A DNA stretch of 46,842 nucleotides, from IMG/VR virus record IMGVR_UViG_3300028871_000005. One strand, written 5' to 3'. This DNA comes from a virus. Below, piece after piece: positions 25,116-46,842 of this stretch. The position numbers and the translations under genes are program-made. The stretch's first letter is position 1, and each line of letters starts with the position of its first letter. The notes below the pieces were generated by a model. The model was given only the letters and a program-made list of their open reading frames with translations, did no database searches and had not been told where the DNA came from.

Positions 25116-25127
25116 AGGCTTATGTAT

Positions 25128-25139
25128 TGGCGGAGAGAG
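25128..25139 (-). other. Candidate attP core: 12 nt matching the reverse complement of a tRNA-Ser 3' end (CTCTCTCCGCCA)
   Basis: TGGCGGAGAGAG lies between alpA and int. From memory, this is the 3' acceptor end plus CCA of tRNA-Ser (for example E. coli serU). On the same strand the hairpin lies 12 nt downstream. Confidence 0.35.
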
Positions 25140-25283
25140 CGTCCGCGAGCCGCGCATATTGCACCATTCGCCCAAAGCAAGCAAGCCTTGCTGCATCAAC
25201 GTTTCTATGGGTTTTGTTTTCCGCTACTGTTCGCCAATGTAAGTGGCAATCAGGGTGTAAAACATGGGTGGGAATGTGGGTCG

Positions 25284-26459
25284 ATGGCCCGGGCGCTGAA
25301 TCGCTTGTCGGCGCGTCGCGTGGCGACTGTGGCCGAACCTGGATATTACGCGGATGGTGGAGGCTTGTATCTACAGGTGACGGCCACGCTGTCTAAGTCG
25401 TGGATCTTCCGATTCACTCGAGCTGGAAAGACTCGAGATATGGGACTGGGTGCATTGCACACCGTCAGCCTTGTTGAAGCTCGAGCCGCGGCGTTGCTTG
25501 CACGCAAAGCAAAGCTCGAGGGTATCGACCCGCTCGAGGCGAGGAAGGCAGCTAACGCGACCCGGGCTTCGATCCCAACATTCGCCGAGGCAGCGCTCGA
25601 GTACATCGCCAGTCAGCGAAAGTCATGGACGAATCCGAAGCACGCCGCCCAGTGGCAATCGACGCTCGAACTTTACGCATTCCCGTTCATCGGATCAAAG
25701 CCGGTTGACGCGATCGACACAGCTGACGTTCTCGAGATACTTCGGCCTGTGTGGGAGACCAAGACGGAGACGGCGACTCGAGTAAGGCAGCGTGTAGAGG
25801 CGGTGCTTGATGCCCAGTATGCCCAGCGGCATTGGGATAGGCAGAACCCGGCACGATGGCGTGGTCACCTCGCCAAGCTGCTACCGAAGCCCTCAAGCGT
25901 GCGCGCGGTGCGCCACTTTCCTGCAATGCCCTATCTCGAGATGCCTGCATTCATGGCGACGCTGCGCGCTGACACGGCTATCTCCGCCCGAGCGCTCGAG
26001 TTCCTTATCCTCACAGCCTCGCGCACGAACATGGTCAGCAAAGCGCGCTGGCTCGAGATTGCCGGCGACACTTGGACCATACCGAAAGAGCGCATGAAGG
26101 CGAAGCGTGTTCACCCTGTCCCGCTGACGGACGCAGCAATAGCCGTGCTCGAGCGGACCCCACGATTGCGCGGAGGTCTTTTCATCTTCCCGGGGGACCG
26201 TGGCCTGAAAGCCCATATGTCGAACGCCGCCATGGACAAGCTGCTCGAGCGCATTGGCTTCGCACGCTTCACCGTGCACGGCTTCCGCTCAACGTTTAAG
26301 GATTGGGCGACCGAACGAACCGACTTCCCCAACGAGGTCAGCGAGTCGGCGCTGGCGCATGTGGTCAAGGACAAAACCGAAGCCGCTTACCGCCGAGGCG
26401 ACTTGCTCGAGAAGCGACGCCAGCTGATGCAGGCCTGGGCTGATTACCTCACCCCCTGA
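25284..26459 (+). CDS. int: Tyrosine integrase, P4-like (DUF4102-type N-terminus)
   Basis: N-terminal LSARRVATVAEPGYYADGGGLYLQV. Catalytic residues are in ASRTN, HGFRSTF, LAH and AAYRRGD. Start at MARALNRL. The track's longer N-terminus looks non-coding. Confidence 0.9.
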   Translation: MARALNRLSARRVATVAEPGYYADGGGLYLQVTATLSKSWIFRFTRAGKTRDMGLGALHTVSLVEARAAALLARKAKLEGIDPLEARKAANATRASIPTFAEAALEYIASQRKSWTNPKHAAQWQSTLELYAFPFIGSKPVDAIDTADVLEILRPVWETKTETATRVRQRVEAVLDAQYAQRHWDRQNPARWRGHLAKLLPKPSSVRAVRHFPAMPYLEMPAFMATLRADTAISARALEFLILTASRTNMVSKARWLEIAGDTWTIPKERMKAKRVHPVPLTDAAIAVLERTPRLRGGLFIFPGDRGLKAHMSNAAMDKLLERIGFARFTVHGFRSTFKDWATERTDFPNEVSESALAHVVKDKTEAAYRRGDLLEKRRQLMQAWADYLTP

Positions 26460-33704: not shown

Positions 33705-34444
33705 GGGCTGATCGGGTACGTGATGGTCGAGCCAACGCTATTGGTCGGTGAGGCACCCTGCGCCACGCCACCGGCTGGGCCCACGCCGGGTAGTTGATTC
33801 GGGCCGATCTGCTGTCCCGATGACACTTTGGCGTACAGCGCGTTATAGGCGGATGTGGCTGCTTGCTGCGTCAGCAAAGGTTGTATGAAATCCCACTGGA
33901 ATATCACCTGCTTCTGCTTCGTCTCGCCCGACGTGATGTCCTGCATCGCCGTCAGCAGGCAATTCGTATAGATAAAGGCGGGCGTGGCGACGTTGTAGGT
34001 TCCACCCGCGTTGTTATGGGCCTGAAGCGCGTTCTGCAGTGAGGTGAAGTTCGCCAGCTTGCTGTTGTAGCCGCCCGCATCCCTGACCGGAGCGATCATC
34101 ATCACCGACACATTCAGCGGGTTCTGAATCAGCGCATTCGCGGCGACCTGTTGATTAGCGAAGGGGTACGTCCCGATCGCATTGGATATCAGCGTCCCGC
34201 CCGGGATGACGATGTAACGCGCCAGGTAATTGTCCAGGCCGCCGAGAAGCGACGCCGTGCCATTGATCGCCGTGGATTGGCCGAACAGAGAGATGATCGG
34301 CATCTGGCCGCCGGCCGCATTTGCCGCAATCCCGCCCACCAGAATGATCGGCGATATCTGGTAGGACATGTCGTAATCCGACACGCCAGAGGGAATCAGT
34401 CCCGATGAAAGGGCTTCCGACACAATGGATGGAATGGCGCTCAT
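33701..34444 (-). CDS. Tail structural protein (247 aa)
   Basis: ORF directly after the tape-measure gene, with a 4-nt overlap. Confidence 0.45.
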   Translation of the reverse strand: MSAIPSIVSEALSSGLIPSGVSDYDMSYQISPIILVGGIAANAAGGQMPIISLFGQSTAINGTASLLGGLDNYLARYIVIPGGTLISNAIGTYPFANQQVAANALIQNPLNVSVMMIAPVRDAGGYNSKLANFTSLQNALQAHNNAGGTYNVATPAFIYTNCLLTAMQDITSGETKQKQVIFQWDFIQPLLTQQAATSAYNALYAKVSSGQQIGPNQLPGVGPAGGVAQGASPTNSVGSTITYPISP

Positions 34445-36231
34445 ATCGCCGCCGCGTTGGCTGATACGGCCACGTTGGTGCCGGACTTATTGGTCACGAC
34501 GAGATTGACCGTTGTCTTGGATTTGTTCGATGCCATCAGCGACAAAACCTTCTGGATCTGGTTCTGCGTTTCCGTCGGCGCAAAGCGCTCCCAGTCCGCA
34601 CCGTGCTTTTTTATATCCGAATCCAGTGCGGCGGGCTTCCAGTTGTAGGCGGCAATCTCTTTTCGAACGTCTCCTCCGTAGCGCTTGCTCAACTGGGCAT
34701 AAAGCTTCGCTGCCCCCGTGGAACTCTGCTTGAAGTCGTAGACGTTGTTGACGCCCAATGCAGCGGCCGTTTCTGGCATGAACTGGAAAAGTCCCTGTGC
34801 GCCTGCAGCTGATGTTCCTGGGTCCAGTCGGCCTGACGATTCGACCTGCGCTGTAGCTCCAAGCAGGCCCGGTTGCAATGCCTGATTCTTTTCCAAATTT
34901 GAAAGGTAGGCCTGATTATTCGGGTCAGTGAGTACGTTACCCGCAATCGCCGATTTTATGGTTCTGGATGGGTTCCAAATAGCTTTCCCCACTCCCACCA
35001 TATTTTCCCAGACGTCATCCGCAACCCGCTCTACTTTGTCAGTCGTGGAAGCATCTTGGGGGTGAAGGACGCTATTTGCTCGGTCGACTATCCATCCCAT
35101 CGCCTTAGCTAGGCTCTTCAGGTTATCGACAAATCCTCTCACGTCATCCTTGAAATCCTGAGAACCCAAGTACGTCGCAAATGTGGTCAGGCCATCCTGC
35201 ATCGACTTCATGTTGGCGTCGGTAAACACGCCATTGATCAGGATTTCCGCATCCTTTTCCAGGTTCGTGATGAAGCTGGATAGCGCACCATTTTTGTTGA
35301 GATCGGAAAGCTTGTTGGCGAAGTCGATCTCTAGGTGGTCGCCTGCGTTCTTCAGACTGCGACTGAAGTCATAGAGCGCGTTGATTGAGCTGTTGCTCTG
35401 GCTGAGTCCGGGCGCATCGGCCTTGTACGTTGCATAGGCTTTCTCAAGCTCGGAGCGCGGTGTGTTTCCCTGCCGTCGAACATCAGCCAGTGACATGCCG
35501 GACTGAGTAAATCCCGTGGCCATGAGGTTGGCATCGGTATGCTGCGATTCCGGCGTGGAGGCCCACCAGTCATGCGCCTTAAGGGCGAGCTGAGCGGACA
35601 ACGATCCGGCATCTGTACGCTGCACATCGGTCTGGCTCATCCCCGTTGCACGGGCCAGCCAGACGCGGCCGACATAGCTGTTTTGGGCGTCAGCGACGCT
35701 GGTCAACGTGCTGCGGTCAATGTTGCGCGAAAGATCGTTGTCAAACGCTCGGTTCTGTCCGGTGGTCAGGCCCAGGGATCGCCCGCTGCGCTGATTAGCC
35801 ACCGCACTGTTCGCCAGCGCATCGATCCCGAAAAGGCCAGCTGCTGCCGATCCAATACCGATCGCGCCAAGCTTGAACAGGAACTTGCCGATGCCGAAAA
35901 CCGATTCACCCAGCGCCTTGGCATCTTTCGCCATCGCCTTTAGATTGTTCGATCCGACATTCGAGGCAGAGCCGAACTCGCGCTGTGCCGCGGCGGCTTC
36001 CCGCAGGTTCTTTGTCAGTGCCGAAGCGTGGCCCGCCGACTCCGTCATCGATCCCAGGATCGCAGCGGCGGTGACTTCCAGTGCTTCTGACGATTCCGTA
36101 CTCGCCGCATTGACGGCTTTCCAGTCGTCCGGCATCGCCTCCAGCTTTTCCTTGTACTGCTCGAAAAGCTGAAAGAAGTCCTTGAACTGCGCGTCCGAGA
36201 CTTCGATTTCAATGACGGATTTAGTGACCAC
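34441..36231 (-). CDS. Tape-measure-like protein with a C-terminal soluble lytic transglycosylase domain
   Basis: 596 aa with a GTG start. The SLT motif is TAQVESSGRLDPGTSAAGAQGLFQFMPETAAALGV. It follows the frameshifting chaperone pair. Confidence 0.7.
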   Translation of the reverse strand: MVTKSVIEIEVSDAQFKDFFQLFEQYKEKLEAMPDDWKAVNAASTESSEALEVTAAAILGSMTESAGHASALTKNLREAAAAQREFGSASNVGSNNLKAMAKDAKALGESVFGIGKFLFKLGAIGIGSAAAGLFGIDALANSAVANQRSGRSLGLTTGQNRAFDNDLSRNIDRSTLTSVADAQNSYVGRVWLARATGMSQTDVQRTDAGSLSAQLALKAHDWWASTPESQHTDANLMATGFTQSGMSLADVRRQGNTPRSELEKAYATYKADAPGLSQSNSSINALYDFSRSLKNAGDHLEIDFANKLSDLNKNGALSSFITNLEKDAEILINGVFTDANMKSMQDGLTTFATYLGSQDFKDDVRGFVDNLKSLAKAMGWIVDRANSVLHPQDASTTDKVERVADDVWENMVGVGKAIWNPSRTIKSAIAGNVLTDPNNQAYLSNLEKNQALQPGLLGATAQVESSGRLDPGTSAAGAQGLFQFMPETAAALGVNNVYDFKQSSTGAAKLYAQLSKRYGGDVRKEIAAYNWKPAALDSDIKKHGADWERFAPTETQNQIQKVLSLMASNKSKTTVNLVVTNKSGTNVAVSANAAAI

Positions 36232-41202: not shown

Positions 41203-41705
41203 CAGGCTTTCGGCATCTTGTCGGAGCCATTCGGCGAAACGGACAGACTGAACTTAGTTTCCTTGCCGGTCGGCTTACGACCGCGCGGAACCTGCTCGAT
41301 AATCTCGACCTCACTTTCCGAGGCCATGCGCTCGTTGGTGTTTGGATCGCGGTTGGCTTTGTCGAATCCCAGCGCGGTCATCTTTGCCTCTTCAGCGGAT
41401 CGAAGCATGGCGCGATCAATGACGGCCTCATGACCATGCACAATCGCACTCTCGCTGATCGGCTTGCTGGTGCTGTAGAACAAGCCGGGGAAATCTTCCA
41501 GCTTGCCATTTACGGCGGACGCTGGACGCGCGCCGTAACGCTCCAGCTGGCTGATGACAGCCTGCTCCGAAGCGGGGCTGAAACTTTTTGGCACCTGGAC
41601 CTGACGACCGGCAGGGATCTGCACGAAGTAAGGCCGCGTCATCTCCGGCACGCGGAAATGATGGTGCCAGCGTTGATTGGTGGTGTTGGCGATGAAAAGT
41701 GACAT
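41202..41705 (-). CDS. Hypothetical head-associated protein (167 aa)
   Basis: ORF downstream of the major capsid gene. Confidence 0.5.
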   Translation of the reverse strand: MSLFIANTTNQRWHHHFRVPEMTRPYFVQIPAGRQVQVPKSFSPASEQAVISQLERYGARPASAVNGKLEDFPGLFYSTSKPISESAIVHGHEAVIDRAMLRSAEEAKMTALGFDKANRDPNTNERMASESEVEIIEQVPRGRKPTGKETKFSLSVSPNGSDKMPKA

Positions 41706-41754
41706 GGGGAACCCCTTAAAGGTTCAGCCACCGAAGTGGCCGAAGGATGGTGGA

Positions 41755-42783
41755 TCAGGCGTACTGGAAGTTCAGGATGAACAGGCCTTCTGGACGAAGG
41801 TTCCAGCCCGAGGTGCAACGCAGTTCGTAAACGTCAGTCACGCCGCCATCGGGAATCGGCGTGGTGATCTTGCGTGGAGCTGGCATGTCGCAGTACATCG
41901 CGTTGACGTCGCGCATGGACGGCTGCAGATCGGCGAACTCGTTGGTGTTGATGTCCACGTTCTGCAGATTCTCGATCTCCGGAATCGTCAGCAGCAGCAG
42001 ATCGGAACCGCCCGAGCCTTTGCCGATCAACGTGTCGTCGTAGTAGATCTCGAAGCTGTTACCAGCCTCTTCGAGAACACTCTTGATCACGCCTCCAGTG
42101 GTTTCCGAACCGGCGCCCGGACGCTGGTACTGCACGACCTGCACGATGTCGCTGAGCTGCCAGGCCAGGCCGACGCGCTGAGGGCAAACCAGAATCACCC
42201 GGTTGGAAATGCTCTTGCCGGACTGGAACATGTTTGCCTTGAGCTGCGCCACCTGTCCGAGCATGAACATCGCCATCTCGCCGTTGTCGTACGTCGACAC
42301 GCTGTCGTTGCCGTAGCTGTCAGGTGGCAGCGTGACCTGCGTAGCATTGCCCGAGTTGATCAGGCCTTCGCCGTTGGCCGGGTTGATGCCGTAGATCAGG
42401 CCCGTACGCATGGCCTGGAAGATGCCCTGACGGCCACCGAACTCCTGCGCCTTGGGCAGCGACACGTTCCACGTCGCCGCTTCCGCAATCGCGTGGTGAT
42501 CGTAAATCGCTCGGGTACGAAACAGGTAGGTGGGCGTGCTGTACATCGATGGCACGAAGGTTGCACTCGGCAGCTGGTTGTACGAGGCCTGCGAAGCCTG
42601 CGCATCCGTGCGGATGTCCAGAGCGTGCACGTACACGTACTTGTCCACTTCGCCCAGCTTGACCTTGGGGACACCGCGAGGAAGGACTTCGAACGCACCC
42701 GTGGGCTGCGCCCAGGTCAGGATGAGATCGGGTTCCGAGAAGCTCGGCGTGACTTTGGCTTGAGAAACAAAATAACCACTCAT
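41755..42783 (-). CDS. Major capsid protein
   Basis: 342 aa located after the scaffold and a small decoration-like protein. Composition and position are typical for a capsid protein. Not confirmed by search. Confidence 0.7.
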   Translation of the reverse strand: MSGYFVSQAKVTPSFSEPDLILTWAQPTGAFEVLPRGVPKVKLGEVDKYVYVHALDIRTDAQASQASYNQLPSATFVPSMYSTPTYLFRTRAIYDHHAIAEAATWNVSLPKAQEFGGRQGIFQAMRTGLIYGINPANGEGLINSGNATQVTLPPDSYGNDSVSTYDNGEMAMFMLGQVAQLKANMFQSGKSISNRVILVCPQRVGLAWQLSDIVQVVQYQRPGAGSETTGGVIKSVLEEAGNSFEIYYDDTLIGKGSGGSDLLLLTIPEIENLQNVDINTNEFADLQPSMRDVNAMYCDMPAPRKITTPIPDGGVTDVYELRCTSGWNLRPEGLFILNFQYA

Positions 42784-42795
42784 ATCGTCGGCTCC

Positions 42796-43401
42796 TTAAA
42801 TCTGAATGACGGCGACAGCACCGGCGACCCAGGACACAACCCCGGTACCGGCGTTGTAGCTGACGACTTTGCTGTTGGTGTTGACGGAAAGAACCTTGAT
42901 ACCGGCAAGGGTGATGGCGCCGGCCGTGCCGGATGCCGTGAGCTCCTGAAGCGCCGGGTCCCAGTACAAGGCCTGATTGATGTTGCCCGCCTCAATGGTG
43001 GCTACCTCAGCGGCCAATACGGCGACCTTGATGCGGGCGCCACTGCCCAGACGGAAGAACGTGGTGGTCTGCGTCGGTGCCAGCTGCGGAACAGTGTTGC
43101 CGGGCGTGACGATGGCATTGGACGACTGCGTGAATACCGTCCAGCCGGTCAGGTTGCCGACCGCCGTGGCGATCGTGATGGTGGTGCCGAGACTGGCCTC
43201 GCCATTCGTAGCAACCGATTCAGTGATGGCGATACCGCCATAGATAGGCTGGGCCACCGATGCGCCGATCTTGCCGGAAGCAAGCTCCATGCGGGTCGAC
43301 GGATCATCGACAAAGTCACCCTGGTAGTAGCCCTGGGTGCTGACATCGAACGTTCCATAGGGAGACGTGGTCAGCTGCGGGTTGAAGGTAATGCCGGCCA
43401 T
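42796..43401 (-). CDS. Head decoration / auxiliary capsid protein
   Basis: 201 aa, Gly/Ala/Thr-rich, between the scaffold and the capsid gene. Confidence 0.45.
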   Translation of the reverse strand: MAGITFNPQLTTSPYGTFDVSTQGYYQGDFVDDPSTRMELASGKIGASVAQPIYGGIAITESVATNGEASLGTTITIATAVGNLTGWTVFTQSSNAIVTPGNTVPQLAPTQTTTFFRLGSGARIKVAVLAAEVATIEAGNINQALYWDPALQELTASGTAGAITLAGIKVLSVNTNSKVVSYNAGTGVVSWVAGAVAVIQI

Positions 43402-45194
43402 TAGTTAGCTCCCTTATTCACGTCGCGGTTGATTCGGGCGACGTAGCCGGGGGCTTTGAAAGAAGCCATCCAGCCATTCGGGTCGCCGGTATAGGTGGTA
43501 ATGGGCCGACCGGTGGACATGTCGGTGTGCGCCATCAGGCGACCGGCAGGCTGGCTTGCAGGGCTGCGTGCGGCTACCGCGGCATCGGCGTAGATCTGAC
43601 CTTCGATGATCGCGAACGACGGCGCATCCAGTGAGTCCAGACGAACGTCCTTGGCGGACTCGCTGTGCTTCTGGAACTTCGCCGCCAGACGCTTGCGATA
43701 GCCGATCGGGCTTTCGTCATACAGCGGGGCGCTGACGCTGTCACCGAACATCTGGGCGACGCTGTCGGCACGCAGCTGCGCACGGCTCAGCGCGTCACGG
43801 TCTTCATTCGTCCGCGGCTTGGTGAGGCTGGCAACGCTATTGCGTACCTGTTCGAGATCGGCGCGCAGCTTGGCATTGTCGGCACGCAAAGCGGAGTCGG
43901 CACGTTCGGCCTTTTCCTCTTTCTCGCCCTCCTTCACCGCCTCCTTTTCGTCTTTTTCTTCCTTCTTGCCGTCTTTCTCGGCCTCTTCCTTGGAGTCCTT
44001 ACGCTCGTCCTTGTCGGAGTCCTTGCGATCGGCCTTTTTCTCGCTTTTCTCGTCTTTCTCTTCGTCCTTTTTGGACTCGGAATCCTTACGATCCAGCATC
44101 TCGCCGTCGTCGTCCTTGCGAGCGTCTTTCTTCTCGTCCTTCTTGGCTTCCATCGCGTCCATACGGGCGCAAAGAGCATCAAATCGCTCGGTGGAATCCT
44201 TACGCATTGCGTCCGCCCAGGCCGGGGCCTGATCTTCAGTTGCCATGTTTGTATCCTCTTGAATGTTGACGCCGTTAGGCGCGCCGCCCTTGTCCCATAC
44301 ACCCGCTGGGCAAATCGCCAGATGGTCGAGATAGGACGGTTTACCTTCGATTAAAACCGTCTTCCCATCCTCTAAACGGATGGTTTCAGTTGAACCGGCG
44401 TCACGAAACACAACGGCCGGGCTTGTCGATATGTGCGAGGTCAGCATCAGCTGCGCCGCGTCCGTATCAAACACTTTGGCGATGCCGCGAACCTCATCGC
44501 CCTGGATGTAGCACTGGATCATCGTGCCAATGGCACGGTCCCGATATTCTTCGGTGTTGAGGATCGAATCTGGAGGATGCTCGAAGATCAGCGGCAACCC
44601 GTTGCATCTCTCCACATAGTCGTCGGTCAGAAACTCGGACACCGGCCGACTGACGTATTCATCCAGTGCGGATCGGAAACTGGTTCCCGTACCAGTCACC
44701 CGAAGATCGAACATCCAGATGTTTTCGTACTTCTGCGGACTCAGCAGCTCGTCGGCGCGTATCGCCTTGGCGATGTCGAGTTCATGCCCGGAGGCGAGCT
44801 CAATCGACCGCCTGACTTCGGGATGCGTGTTCGCCGGCAGATCGGAAGGATGAAACCAGCCCGCAGCCAGTGATTCGTCATCCAGCACCGGCTCGAATAC
44901 CGGAACATCTTTGATGTAGCAGCTGAAACGAATGCCATCGGATAGCGAATTACGAAACGGCCACATCGGACCATCGGGAACCTGTCCGACTTCCTCTGTG
45001 CATTCTCGGATCGCGCAATCTTCGGGCGACTCGTCCGGCTCCTGATGTCCGCCAGGCTGGACCCACTGACCGTCGTCCTTGTTCTGGACGAGCAGGAACA
45101 GCGGGCCGCGGGAACGTAGCAGGATGCCGGCGCAAGCGATCGCATTAGCGTCGGCGAACTTCTCCCGATGCCTTGCTCGCGAACTGATGGACAT
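43401..45194 (-). CDS. Nudix hydrolase domain fused to a head scaffold / prohead-protease-like (DUF2213-like) protein
   Basis: One ORF holds all the parts. The Nudix box is GHQEPDESPEDCAIRECTEEVG. Next comes LPLIFEHPP...GDEVRGIAKVFD...YLDHLAICPAGVWD (DUF2213-like). Then a Lys/Glu/Asp-rich tract and a C-terminal domain. The start is probably MSISS (GGAAG upstream), but the ORF is open to 45239. Confidence 0.7.
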   Translation of the reverse strand: MSISSRARHREKFADANAIACAGILLRSRGPLFLLVQNKDDGQWVQPGGHQEPDESPEDCAIRECTEEVGQVPDGPMWPFRNSLSDGIRFSCYIKDVPVFEPVLDDESLAAGWFHPSDLPANTHPEVRRSIELASGHELDIAKAIRADELLSPQKYENIWMFDLRVTGTGTSFRSALDEYVSRPVSEFLTDDYVERCNGLPLIFEHPPDSILNTEEYRDRAIGTMIQCYIQGDEVRGIAKVFDTDAAQLMLTSHISTSPAVVFRDAGSTETIRLEDGKTVLIEGKPSYLDHLAICPAGVWDKGGAPNGVNIQEDTNMATEDQAPAWADAMRKDSTERFDALCARMDAMEAKKDEKKDARKDDDGEMLDRKDSESKKDEEKDEKSEKKADRKDSDKDERKDSKEEAEKDGKKEEKDEKEAVKEGEKEEKAERADSALRADNAKLRADLEQVRNSVASLTKPRTNEDRDALSRAQLRADSVAQMFGDSVSAPLYDESPIGYRKRLAAKFQKHSESAKDVRLDSLDAPSFAIIEGQIYADAAVAARSPASQPAGRLMAHTDMSTGRPITTYTGDPNGWMASFKAPGYVARINRDVNKGAN

Positions 45195-45285
45195 CGGCAC
45201 TTCCTGAATGGCATAGCGAAGCATCCGAGCCCAGCCCATCAGGCCGGTGCATAATCGGATTTCATTCGTATTGAGGGGACAATCA

Positions 45286-45651
45286 ATGAAACGTCTGGCG
45301 CTACTACTCGCGTTTCTGCCGGTTACAGCCTTGGCGCAAGACGATCAACGCACGCAACTGCCGATACCGCCGAGCTGCAGCGTGCAGGAGGCGATTAACT
45401 ACATGAACGCTCAACTGCCGCCGCTGCTCAACGAGCCTGAAACCGAGGCCGAACATATCGTCTCGATCAAGTCGTTCGCCGATCTACCGCGCACCAATGT
45501 GGAATGGCGAGATGCCACGCCAGGTCAGCACTACCAACTGAACTGCTCGATTGCAATCACCATGACCGGTGGGCAGGTGATCTATGGTCAGTTCAGGGCT
45601 CTAACGCAGGCTAACGGAACGATCACCGTAGGCTTCAAACCTTCGCGTTAA
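45286..45651 (+). CDS. Secreted small protein, opposite-strand moron in the head module
   Basis: MKRLALLLAFLPVTALA|QDD is a signal peptide. GAGGGG lies 8 nt upstream. It is the only plus-strand gene among the minus-strand structural genes. Confidence 0.65.
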   Translation: MKRLALLLAFLPVTALAQDDQRTQLPIPPSCSVQEAINYMNAQLPPLLNEPETEAEHIVSIKSFADLPRTNVEWRDATPGQHYQLNCSIAITMTGGQVIYGQFRALTQANGTITVGFKPSR

Positions 45652-46460
45652 GCCGCAATCCGCACCGCATCCAGTGCAGTCTTTCCAGATACCGTCAGCA
45701 TGTCGGCTGGAAGATCGCGCAGGTTGTAGATCCACACGTAGTAGCACCGGCAGAAAACTTCTTCACCCGGCGCCGTCTGTTCGTCGGTGTAGCCAGCACC
45801 CTTGTTGATCAGGCCTTTGTCAGCTGCCCAGCTGCCGCGCACGGCGAATACCTTGCCGTTGCGCTCCATATGGTCATGGCGGGCGTTGTACGTCTTGTCG
45901 ACCGATCCATGGTCACGCCACTTGCCGGCGATCGCGCCACCTTCCTTGGCGATCACGTCACTGATCGAGGCGACCAGCTTGTGGCCCTGGTCGATGATGC
46001 AGCGGCGCTCTTCGTACTTCGCCTGACGCAGGGACTTCGCCACGTCTGTTTTCACCGTCACGCGATCCACCACGCGCGAGCCGCCATCCGGAATGGACGT
46101 GGCCCAACCCGAGAACCGCTGCAGCGTCTTGTCGATGGCCTGTTCGCGATTCAGTTTGATCAGGTCAGCACTCGCCAGAACGCGGCGCGTCAGTTCAGCG
46201 CGTAGTTCAGGCTTGATCCGCTCCACCGTGAACCGCGGAATCTCCCGGTGGGTGCGTTTGACCGCCGCTGGCGAGATGGCCCGCTTGTAGACCGACTCCA
46301 AGGCCTGCTTGGTACGCGACTCGATCACCTTTGGCGTCGGCATCTCGGCCTGTGCCGTTTCCCGCAACCGCTTCAGCCAATGTGTCAGGCGAAGCGGGTC
46401 GTCAAAACCTTCCAGCGTGAAGCTGTTCACCGCCGCGGTCAGGGCCTCGTTGAAAGTCAT
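45648..46460 (-). CDS. Head morphogenesis protein (SPP1 gp7 / Mu F-like)
   Basis: 270 aa immediately after the portal (4-nt overlap). The C-terminal GEEVFCRCYYVW segment resembles the family's conserved end. Confidence 0.55.
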   Translation of the reverse strand: MTFNEALTAAVNSFTLEGFDDPLRLTHWLKRLRETAQAEMPTPKVIESRTKQALESVYKRAISPAAVKRTHREIPRFTVERIKPELRAELTRRVLASADLIKLNREQAIDKTLQRFSGWATSIPDGGSRVVDRVTVKTDVAKSLRQAKYEERRCIIDQGHKLVASISDVIAKEGGAIAGKWRDHGSVDKTYNARHDHMERNGKVFAVRGSWAADKGLINKGAGYTDEQTAPGEEVFCRCYYVWIYNLRDLPADMLTVSGKTALDAVRIAA

Positions 46461-46842
46461 TCGTGCGCACTCTCAACGATCGGCTCGCCAGGCTCTTTCA
46501 CTGGGTCAGGCGTCGGTGGCTCGTAGTTTTCGATCAGCTCAAGGTCGAGATTCAGCGGCGTGTCTTTCAGCATTGGCTGACCGTTCGCCACATCGGACAA
46601 CCAACCCGCGGCAGACGCGGCATTGACCGGATCGAGCCGCGGCAGCAACACCTCGAACAGCGCGATCGCGGACTTCATCACGATGTCGGATGTCTTGAAC
46701 TTCTCGCTGTCCGGCTCCGTCAGCAGGTTCGGCCATTCCGCCTTGAACGCGTTGCTCCAGTCCACCAGCGCGGTTTCGTAGGGAACGGCTTTGTACTGCT
46801 CGGGAAACTTTCGCTGGATGGACGCGTAGAACTCAGGGTTCC
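46457..46842 (-). CDS. Portal protein, C-terminal part (same ORF as 1..1199 after circularisation)
   Basis: The frame of ORF 46457..46765 stays open up to the window end. The sequence ...AWNPEFYASIQRKFPEQYKAVPYETALVDWSNAFK... reads continuously with the frame leaving base 1. Confidence 0.75.
   Translation of the reverse strand, partial: NPEFYASIQRKFPEQYKAVPYETALVDWSNAFKAEWPNLLTEPDSEKFKTSDIVMKSAIALFEVLLPRLDPVNAASAAGWLSDVANGQPMLKDTPLNLDLELIENYEPPTPDPVKEPGEPIVESAHE
46716..46842. repeat. Terminal direct repeat, copy 2
   Basis: Identical to 1-127. Removing one copy gives a 46,715 bp unit and restores one intact ORF across the junction. Confidence 0.95.

Follow-up and report, generated by a model that had tools for sequence, protein, structure and literature searches.

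A Nudix hydrolase domain fused to a DUF2213-type head protease-scaffold protein of a temperate myovirus: a candidate for capsid-loaded cargo

The IMG/VR virus record IMGVR_UViG_3300028871_000005, a stretch of 46,842 nucleotides (nt) referred to below as the window, encodes on its minus strand a protein in which a Nudix hydrolase domain is fused to the head protease-scaffold polyprotein of a temperate myovirus. We suggest that the Nudix domain is loaded into the procapsid, freed, and delivered with the DNA, a reading that we hold to be rather probable. An earlier examination of the DNA letters alone (the sequence-only reading) had described a single uninterrupted open reading frame (ORF) at 43401-45239, made up of a Nudix box, a DUF2213-like domain, a charged tract, and a C-terminal domain. 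The ORF is present as described, with 612 amino acid residues counted from its first ATG. Its parts are as follows.

43401-45239, minus strand: full ORF, 612 residues from the first ATG, with Nudix domain, DUF2213-type prohead protease, charged tract, and C-terminal scaffold-like domain (PHROG 6216)
45138-45239, minus strand: non-conserved N-terminal segment, residues 1-34, standing in for the leader 'MPSVSxxQHxxMEAAAH..GIPxSVGKEFV' of all close relatives
45192-45194, minus strand: probable true start codon, Met16 (ATG at 45194, preceded by CAGGAAG)
44808-45137, minus strand: Nudix hydrolase domain, residues 35-144 (Pfam PF00293, E=2e-13, 51 bits against a cutoff of 21.1; PHROG 1198 MutT/NUDIX, 4e-18)
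44985-45050, minus strand: Nudix box G-x5-E-x7-RE-x2-EE-x-G, GHQEPDESPEDCAIRECTEEVG, residues 64-85 (sequence match)
44265-44783, minus strand: divergent DUF2213 domain with a predicted assemblin/gp21-type serine protease fold, residues 153-325 (AlphaFold2 model and fold matches)
44254-44258, minus strand: internal Shine-Dalgarno sequence GAGGA within AAGAGGA, 7 nt upstream of an internal ATG
43401-44246, minus strand: predicted nested in-frame scaffold, Met332 to stop, 281 residues (conserved start and Shine-Dalgarno sequence)
43875-44123, minus strand: Lys/Glu/Asp-rich tract, residues 373-455, 66% Lys, Glu and Asp (composition and model)
43404-43874, minus strand: C-terminal domain, residues 456-612, conserved, with helices and a β-hairpin (predicted local distance difference test score, pLDDT, mostly above 90)

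The fusion is a real and common layout, of which the window gene adds one more ordinary case within a large family. Residues 36-600 of the 612-residue protein are matched end to end by PHROG 6216, a family without an assigned function (7e-139); thus, the whole four-part architecture is that of an established phage protein family. At least 1258 members are found in the protein database, and at least 570 IMG/VR contigs carry the family, as do 50 representative bacterial genomes, mostly of Proteobacteria. The sequence-only reading had raised the worry that a sequencing error merged two separate genes. The window is a metagenomic circular assembly, and nothing was found in favor of an assembly or sequencing artefact joining a Nudix gene to a scaffold/protease gene. 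The identical 612-residue protein is found on many independent metagenomic contigs of ~46.8 kb, and the fusion recurs in cultured phages and at hundreds of loci. Together with the full-length PHROG 6216 model, the independent contigs and the cultured phage genomes exclude the artefact, to which we give practically no credence.

The Nudix box lies exactly where the sequence-only reading had placed it and is canonical, and the hidden Markov model (HMM) search proposed there as a check finds a Nudix domain well above the Pfam cutoff. The strict box, including the RE-x2-EE motif, is retained in ~105 of 120 homologues, down to 46% identity, and the domain is predicted to be catalytically intact. 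By sequence, its nearest solved structures are Thermus Ndx1 (an Ap6A hydrolase; 5e-8), the DIPPs (diphosphoinositol-polyphosphate/ApnA hydrolases), and Bdellovibrio RppH (3ees). Downstream substrate-specificity motifs, that is, a Pro or Tyr ~16 residues past the box, were also considered; the spacing does not fit, and no claim is made from them. As for where translation begins, the first ATG (45239) has no Shine-Dalgarno sequence or other ribosome-binding site, and therefore Met16 is the likely start of the ORF.

The DUF2213-like assignment of the middle domain stands as to fold and falls short as to score. The Pfam DUF2213 model (PF09979) reaches residues 196-313 of the window protein with 18.9 bits, below its cutoff of 22 bits. 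Relatives in the family exceed the cutoff: PdC23 scores 30.0, the prophage Rac-SA53 26.6, and P0014 28.7 bits. The window domain is thus best taken, by sequence, as a divergent DUF2213 relative and not as a scored member. An AlphaFold2 model of residues 150-335, built from a 109-sequence alignment, is confident (pLDDT 87.7; predicted template modeling score, pTM, 0.83). When the model was searched against the PDB, all of the top 36 matches were T4 gp21 prohead protease or herpesvirus assemblins, with probability up to 0.99. The viral structure library BFVD gave 136 matches at E<=1e-3; DUF2213 proteins are among these, as are many proteins annotated as prohead serine proteases or HK97 proheadases. 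The modeled domain thus has the fold of a capsid-maturation (assemblin/gp21) protease. By sequence, residues 150-612 found no match in the PDB.

Within this fold, His221 (44577-44579) and Ser273 (44421-44423) are invariant over the 109 homologues, and His306 (44322-44324) is conserved in more than 90% of them. HMM alignment places His221 and Ser273 opposite the His of 'GLPLMIKH' and the Ser of 'LSCGY', respectively, in the canonical DUF2213 protease Bcep781 gp14. Comparison of the core alignment with HK97 gp4 by hhalign gave no significant alignment, and so the assignment draws on conservation and on the alignment to canonical DUF2213. On these grounds His221 and Ser273 are candidate catalytic residues.

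The tract and domain that follow the protease agree with what had been described. In the model, the charged tract is disordered in part, over residues 374-416 (pLDDT below 50), and leads into a helix of ~59 residues. The C-terminal domain is conserved and confidently modeled, and is presumed to be the capsid-binding end of a scaffold. Just ahead of the charged tract, the DNA reads AAGAGGATACAAAC-ATG, where the ATG of Met332 begins at 44246. At the Met332 position, 30 of 32 distinct related loci have a start codon together with GGAG, GAGG, or AGGA at proper spacing, whereas such a motif precedes only 8.3% of the 792 further in-frame start codons of these ORFs; since the 32 loci are related to one another, this contrast is not to be read as a formal probability. 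The peptides encoded at the internal start vary, with at least nine contexts (TGDPEM, TGETQM, QEDLTM, NGETAM, LGDIEM, and others). Where Met332 is replaced, a Val codon is always GTG and a Leu codon is always TTG. This is the pattern that selection on a translation start would predict. Because the internal start is conserved, the ORF probably yields two products, the full-length protein and a nested scaffold of 281 residues, the latter absent from the sequence-only reading. As modeled, the shorter product starts with a helix, followed by the disordered charged tract, the 59-residue helix, and a compact domain, confidently predicted, of helices and a β-hairpin; it is helical and elongated, a scaffold-like shape. 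A Foldseek search of the viral library with the nested product matched only a member of its own family, and neither structure nor sequence matched a characterized scaffold.

Nested protease-scaffold genes of this kind are established for lambda (C/Nu3) and Mu (I/Z). As is predicted for the window, the gpC/Nu3 and gpI/gpZ pairs have a protease gene with an in-frame internal start from which the scaffold is made out of the C-terminal part. Their nested genes also resemble the window gene in place, with the portal-side genes on one side and the capsid gene on the other, and in that no delta domain is evident in the capsid protein. The window capsid protein equals annotated capsid homologues in size, and hence no added N-terminal delta domain is evident. 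The lambda gpC protease differs in being of the ClpP/SppA type rather than of the assemblin fold. A further difference is that no enzyme cargo at the N-terminus is known from lambda or Mu.

The N-terminal position of the family is variable. The sequence-only reading had proposed surveying related phages for scaffolds that lack the Nudix domain, and such proteins exist: among 103 distinct proteins from the fetched loci, ~85 carry the Nudix domain and 18 do not. The arrangements found are leader plus Nudix, Nudix without leader (the window), leader only, neither, and extended forms. Two short leaders occur, type A, 'MPSVSEKQHxAMEAAAHGHSTLGIP', and type B, 'MPLEKGSSxxxISxNI' (..GK..QAxAIA); leader B is also seen at the N-terminus of gp26 of phage BcepB1A. 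The extended forms comprise PBECR1 plus Nudix, LPD3 plus Nudix, and an ADP-ribosyltransferase (ART) exoenzyme domain plus Nudix, and further modules occur as well. In two lineages, a full ART of the Alt/VIP2 type (domain scores of 1e-19) lies directly upstream of the Nudix domain. Nudix-less members are interspersed among Nudix-bearing ones. The cleanest case is the pair P0006 and P0071, which are ~99% identical in leader and backbone and hold unrelated cassettes of ~125 residues between '...EFV' and 'ELDIAKAI...'; only one of the two cassettes is a Nudix domain. This difference is a clean and recent cassette replacement. By such comparisons, the N-terminus of the family acts like a slot in which cargo can be exchanged.

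Multi-domain relatives have in common a connector, '(F/W)xE..HPRxxxG(K/R/E)FGSGGG', between the leader and the first cargo domain (the relatives compared for leader and connector are P0014, P0019, P0068, P0071, and P0073, and loci L018, L065, and L128). Leaders and connector may be a processing or targeting signal.

Family members with named hosts include QDWS gp44, PdC23 gp04, and the proteins of Klebsiella phages RothC/D and Chronis and of Yersinia phages vB_YenM. Like the window gene, they encode the four-part protein in a syntenic head module, at 38-56% identity. Unlike QDWS and all close relatives, the window has no leader and has a gene inserted upstream on the opposite strand. Annotations in GenBank are inconsistent across the family: hypothetical protein, NUDIX hydrolase, glycosyl transferase (Yersinia vB_YenM phages), and 'TolA protein', the last in Actinobacillus pPE4 and in Rac-SA53, where the entry is noted 'nudix' yet has no Nudix domain. 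The low-complexity charged tract is probably the cause of such misannotation. Also, OK094664.1 (Shewanella phage vB_Sb_QDWS) and OP650936.1 ('Hujiaoplasma phage zrk29-1') are both 47902 bp long and give identical match statistics; the same sequence may have been deposited under two very different hosts.

The survey bears on the proposal that the Nudix domain, rather than being an effector enzyme, binds nucleotides and serves the protease as a regulatory or structural module, for example by gating its activation. The Nudix domain directly adjoins the protease, and non-catalytic Nudix sensors exist, such as the NrtR-type regulators cited in PMC9503650. The full catalytic box is strictly retained in most homologues, as given above, which speaks against a binding-only role. 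Moreover, many members have a near-identical protease backbone with no Nudix domain or with an unrelated cassette, and so the protease does not need the Nudix domain. We regard a regulatory module as very improbable.

The association of Nudix domains with head proteins is wider than PHROG 6216. Relatives of the window Nudix domain are found at the C-terminus of the portal proteins of Bcep781, Bcep1, Bcep43, and BcepNY3, at the N-terminus of BcepB1A gp26, and as a free-standing gene in Bm1, where it sits between the MuF and DUF2213-protease genes. These head-module Nudix domains match each other with E-values of 1e-12 to 1e-42 and T4 NudE with E-values of 1e-2 to 1e-8, and they have a downstream motif in common, DEH..W(G)WF..LP..HP. 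The window domain matches the Bcep portal-fused and Bm1 domains at E-values from 1e-15 to 1e-21. Thus, the Bcep portal fusions and Bm1 have a Nudix domain of the same clade, also in the head module; they differ from the window in that the Nudix domain is on the portal C-terminus (Bcep781 gp17) or unfused, with the DUF2213 protease encoded by a separate gene. PMC9503650 names a T4 NudE-like Nudix clade; the head-module domains are much closer to one another than any of them is to T4 NudE.

BcepB1A, as annotated, offers an exact parallel in organization. Its gp26 ('head maturation protease, COG3566') has a Nudix domain at residues 46-118 and a canonical DUF2213 domain at 167-337 (1.6e-35). Nested in frame within gp26 is gp25, annotated 'scaffold protein', the ATG of which is preceded by GGAG. 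As in the window, where the scaffold is a predicted product, an N-terminal Nudix domain and a DUF2213 protease are followed by a nested scaffold with a Shine-Dalgarno-preceded ATG, and the gene lies between a MuF-like gene and the genes for a small virion protein and the capsid. BcepB1A differs in having a canonical DUF2213 domain and another N-terminal leader, and similarity at the BLAST level is confined to the Nudix domain. That is, BLASTP of the core, scaffold, 201-residue, capsid, and MuF proteins of the window against the head proteins of BcepB1A, Bcep781, and Bm1 gave no similarity. It follows that the Nudix-head association arose, or was kept, in separate lineages, and, judged by sequence, BcepB1A either belongs to a lineage of its own or parted from the window family very long ago.

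Other head-packaged effectors provide further comparison. T4 Alt is packaged in the head, processed by gp21, and injected, and the ART found directly upstream of Nudix parallels it. In T4 Alt and the T4 internal proteins, in MuF-effector fusions, and in polyvalent proteins, as in the window, an enzyme is tethered or targeted through the head-assembly machinery and is presumed to be injected. The window differs in its carrier, which is a protease-scaffold and neither MuF nor a short capsid-targeting peptide. It also differs in processing, for which it has a resident maturation serine protease, whereas a metallopeptidase domain has been proposed for polyvalent proteins. A MuF-effector fusion is not what the window encodes, as its MuF-like protein is the product of a separate gene (45648-46460). 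Phage polyvalent proteins, defined by Iyer et al. 2017 (PMC5512222), are head-packaged and include LPD and PBECR domains. The window protein, with one effector domain plus the protease-scaffold, falls outside the definition, which calls for several effector domains, and relatives with ART plus Nudix, PBECR1 plus Nudix, or LPD3 plus Nudix fall within it. For the window protein, the most fitting description is that of a minimal member of a polyvalent-capable chassis.

From these elements we infer the following course of events for the loading and delivery of the Nudix domain. The backbone would be a maturation serine protease of the DUF2213 type followed by a scaffolding region, that is, the charged tract, the long helix, and the capsid-binding C-terminal domain. 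From the internal ribosome-binding site and ATG at Met332, the scaffold would be made by itself, presumably in larger amounts than the long form. The scaffold end would co-assemble with the capsid protein, so that the full-length form, though in the minority, should take both protease and Nudix cargo inside the procapsid. There, digestion of the scaffold by the resident protease would follow, and the Nudix domain would probably be released by the same enzyme. Trapped in the head, the 15-kDa Nudix would leave with the DNA at the next infection and, in the new host, would hydrolyze a nucleoside-diphosphate-X compound. The sharing of the slot with ART, PBECR1, and LPD3, the cassette exchange, and the fusions to portal and to another protease all strengthen the case for cargo loading; being comparative, they do not prove it.

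Several points weigh against this proposal. Prohead proteases and scaffolds are usually degraded or expelled at maturation, and the Nudix domain could be lost with them. No cleavage site is definable in the fusion protein, and the searchable literature gave no experimental evidence of virion incorporation for any family member. As to the protease, the DUF2213 score is below the cutoff, the PDB matches are modest (template modeling score ~0.4, E ~2e-3), and the catalytic roles of His221 and Ser273 are read from conservation. As to the Nudix domain, its closest solved relatives are of the Ap6A, DIPP, and RppH types and are not ADP-ribose pyrophosphatases, its match to T4 NudE is weak (E=0.002 over 29 residues), and NCBIfam has no equivalog for it, all matches being far under the cutoffs, so that no substrate is assignable from that source. 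Lastly, the window phage does not have the N-terminal leader common to all close relatives.

The main rival reading has the Nudix enzyme at work in the producer cell, or in the procapsid as it assembles, and nowhere else; the fusion would do no more than couple its synthesis to the late head genes, and the domain would be degraded or expelled with the protease and scaffold at maturation and never delivered. Clearance of proteases and scaffolds from mature heads is the normal course. In Bm1, the related Nudix is encoded by a late gene of its own and is not physically tethered to a head protein, and no virion proteomics in support of packaging was found in the searchable literature. The placement of the same Nudix clade elsewhere argues the other way, as the portal, on the C-terminus of which it is found, is a permanent virion component. 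The slot also holds ART, PBECR1, and LPD3, which are typical of injected polyvalent effectors (PMC5512222), and a soluble late enzyme has no obvious gain from being tied to an assembly protein. Action confined to the producer cell is, in our judgment, unlikely, and loading followed by delivery is the reading that we prefer.

A broader proposal is that the DUF2213 protease-scaffold is a general, hot-swappable cargo chassis. The slot would lie between the leader ('...EFVxAD') and the protease ('ELDIAKAI...'), and the protease would both mature the capsid and free the cargo. The Nudix domain, often with an ART, would be ejected with the DNA and, ahead of any phage gene expression, would destroy NAD-derived molecules or immune signals based on ADP-ribose. 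We put this forward tentatively and consider it, taken as a whole, doubtful.

As to the substrate, the adjoining ART in two lineages favors a NAD- or ADP-ribose-linked function, which is also argued for head Nudix domains in PMC9503650. The Nudix domains of Bcep781 and BcepB1A match T4 NudE at up to 1e-8, and NudE is listed in the T4 record with activity on FAD, ApnA, ADP-ribose, and NADH. ADP-ribose or NAD-derived molecules are the best-supported class of candidate substrates, with dinucleoside polyphosphates or 5′ RNA caps as alternatives.

The gene sits in the scaffold slot between the portal and MuF-like genes and the capsid gene, as the sequence-only reading had noted; position and PHROG matches agree on this. 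The neighboring genes are as follows.

45648-46460, minus strand: MuF-like head morphogenesis gene, the upstream neighbor, 270 residues (PHROG 324, 1e-25; Pfam Phage_Mu_F weak, 0.093)
42796-43401, minus strand: conserved head-module gene of 201 residues (PHROG 6268, 2e-46), its start and the stop of the Nudix gene having 1 nt in common
41755-42783, minus strand: major capsid protein, 342 residues (PHROG 6671; weak match to PHROG 264 major head protein; 47% identity to the annotated PdC23 major capsid protein)

The ends of the window are identical over 127 nt (1-127 = 46716-46842), an overlap that is the signature of a circular assembly, and thus the window is a complete genome of ~46.7 kb. The junction falls within the portal gene. 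Among the encoded products are TerS, TerL, a tail sheath, a baseplate wedge, and an integrase, which makes the phage a temperate myovirus. The tyrosine-integrase-like gene is at 25122-26459 on the plus strand (PHROG 1, 2e-40) and marks the phage as temperate, and a 596-residue tail-region protein (34441-36231, minus strand) has a lytic transglycosylase/endolysin-like domain at its C-terminus. The head module reads, on the minus strand, TerS, TerL, portal, MuF-like, Nudix gene, 201-residue gene, capsid gene. Shewanella phage QDWS, Pantoea phage PdC23, and the Rac-SA53 prophage have their genes in this order. In GenBank phages, a megablast search with the head module found no relative at the nucleotide level, and PDB sequence searches with the capsid protein and the 201-residue protein gave nothing meaningful.

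The 201-residue gene, between the scaffold gene and the capsid gene, has the same place as lambda D and the BcepB1A gp24 virion protein. The genes at this position in BcepB1A and Bm1 bear the annotation 'virion structural protein', and the PdC23 homologue of the window gene is labeled 'endosialidase', which looks like a misannotation. A 575-residue open frame at 41677-43404 on the plus strand, antisense to the capsid and 201-residue genes, is almost certainly a chance ORF, as is common in GC-rich DNA, and not a gene. Between the MuF-like and Nudix genes, an opposite-strand ORF (45247-45651, plus strand; 121-134 residues, likely start ATG 45286) encodes a product with a Sec-type signal peptide (MKRLALLLAFLPVTALA|QDD) and no family match. 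Among 139 fetched loci, this ORF is found only in the identical phage. It occupies the spot where close relatives encode the conserved N-terminal leader, and it has the look of a moron inserted at the cost of the 5′ end of the Nudix gene.

The searchable literature gave no experimental report of a virion-associated phage Nudix, of BcepB1A in connection with Nudix, or of relevant work on related phages. The layout itself has been predicted in print: Iyer et al. 2022 (PMC9503650, section 3.5.2) described, from computation, head-packaged Nudix domains fused to MuF, portal, and capsid-processing serine peptidase. Added here are structural confirmation of the protease fold in this divergent branch of DUF2213, a nested scaffold start that is conserved, the exact cassette boundaries with a near-isogenic swap pair, and the pairing of ART with Nudix on the DUF2213 protease-scaffold chassis. 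The value of the window gene is that of a well-characterized test case and not of a discovery. Experimental handles exist in the cultured, fusion-bearing phages of Klebsiella, Pantoea, Yersinia, Shewanella, and Burkholderia, in the natural pair P0006/P0071, which differs only in its cargo cassette, and in the variants with an Alt-like ART plus Nudix.

If the Nudix enzyme does travel in the capsid, it would act in the new host before any phage gene is transcribed. This is the period in which nucleotide-based defenses are set off, among them Thoeris-type ADP-ribose signals, NAD depletion, and alarmones. If the protease-scaffold is indeed a cargo chassis, then phages of this family would have a second route, independent of MuF, for pre-loaded anti-immunity enzymes, and one that would lend itself to programmable loading of foreign proteins. 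The slot and the nested scaffold suggest a way in which protein cargo may be engineered into phage heads.

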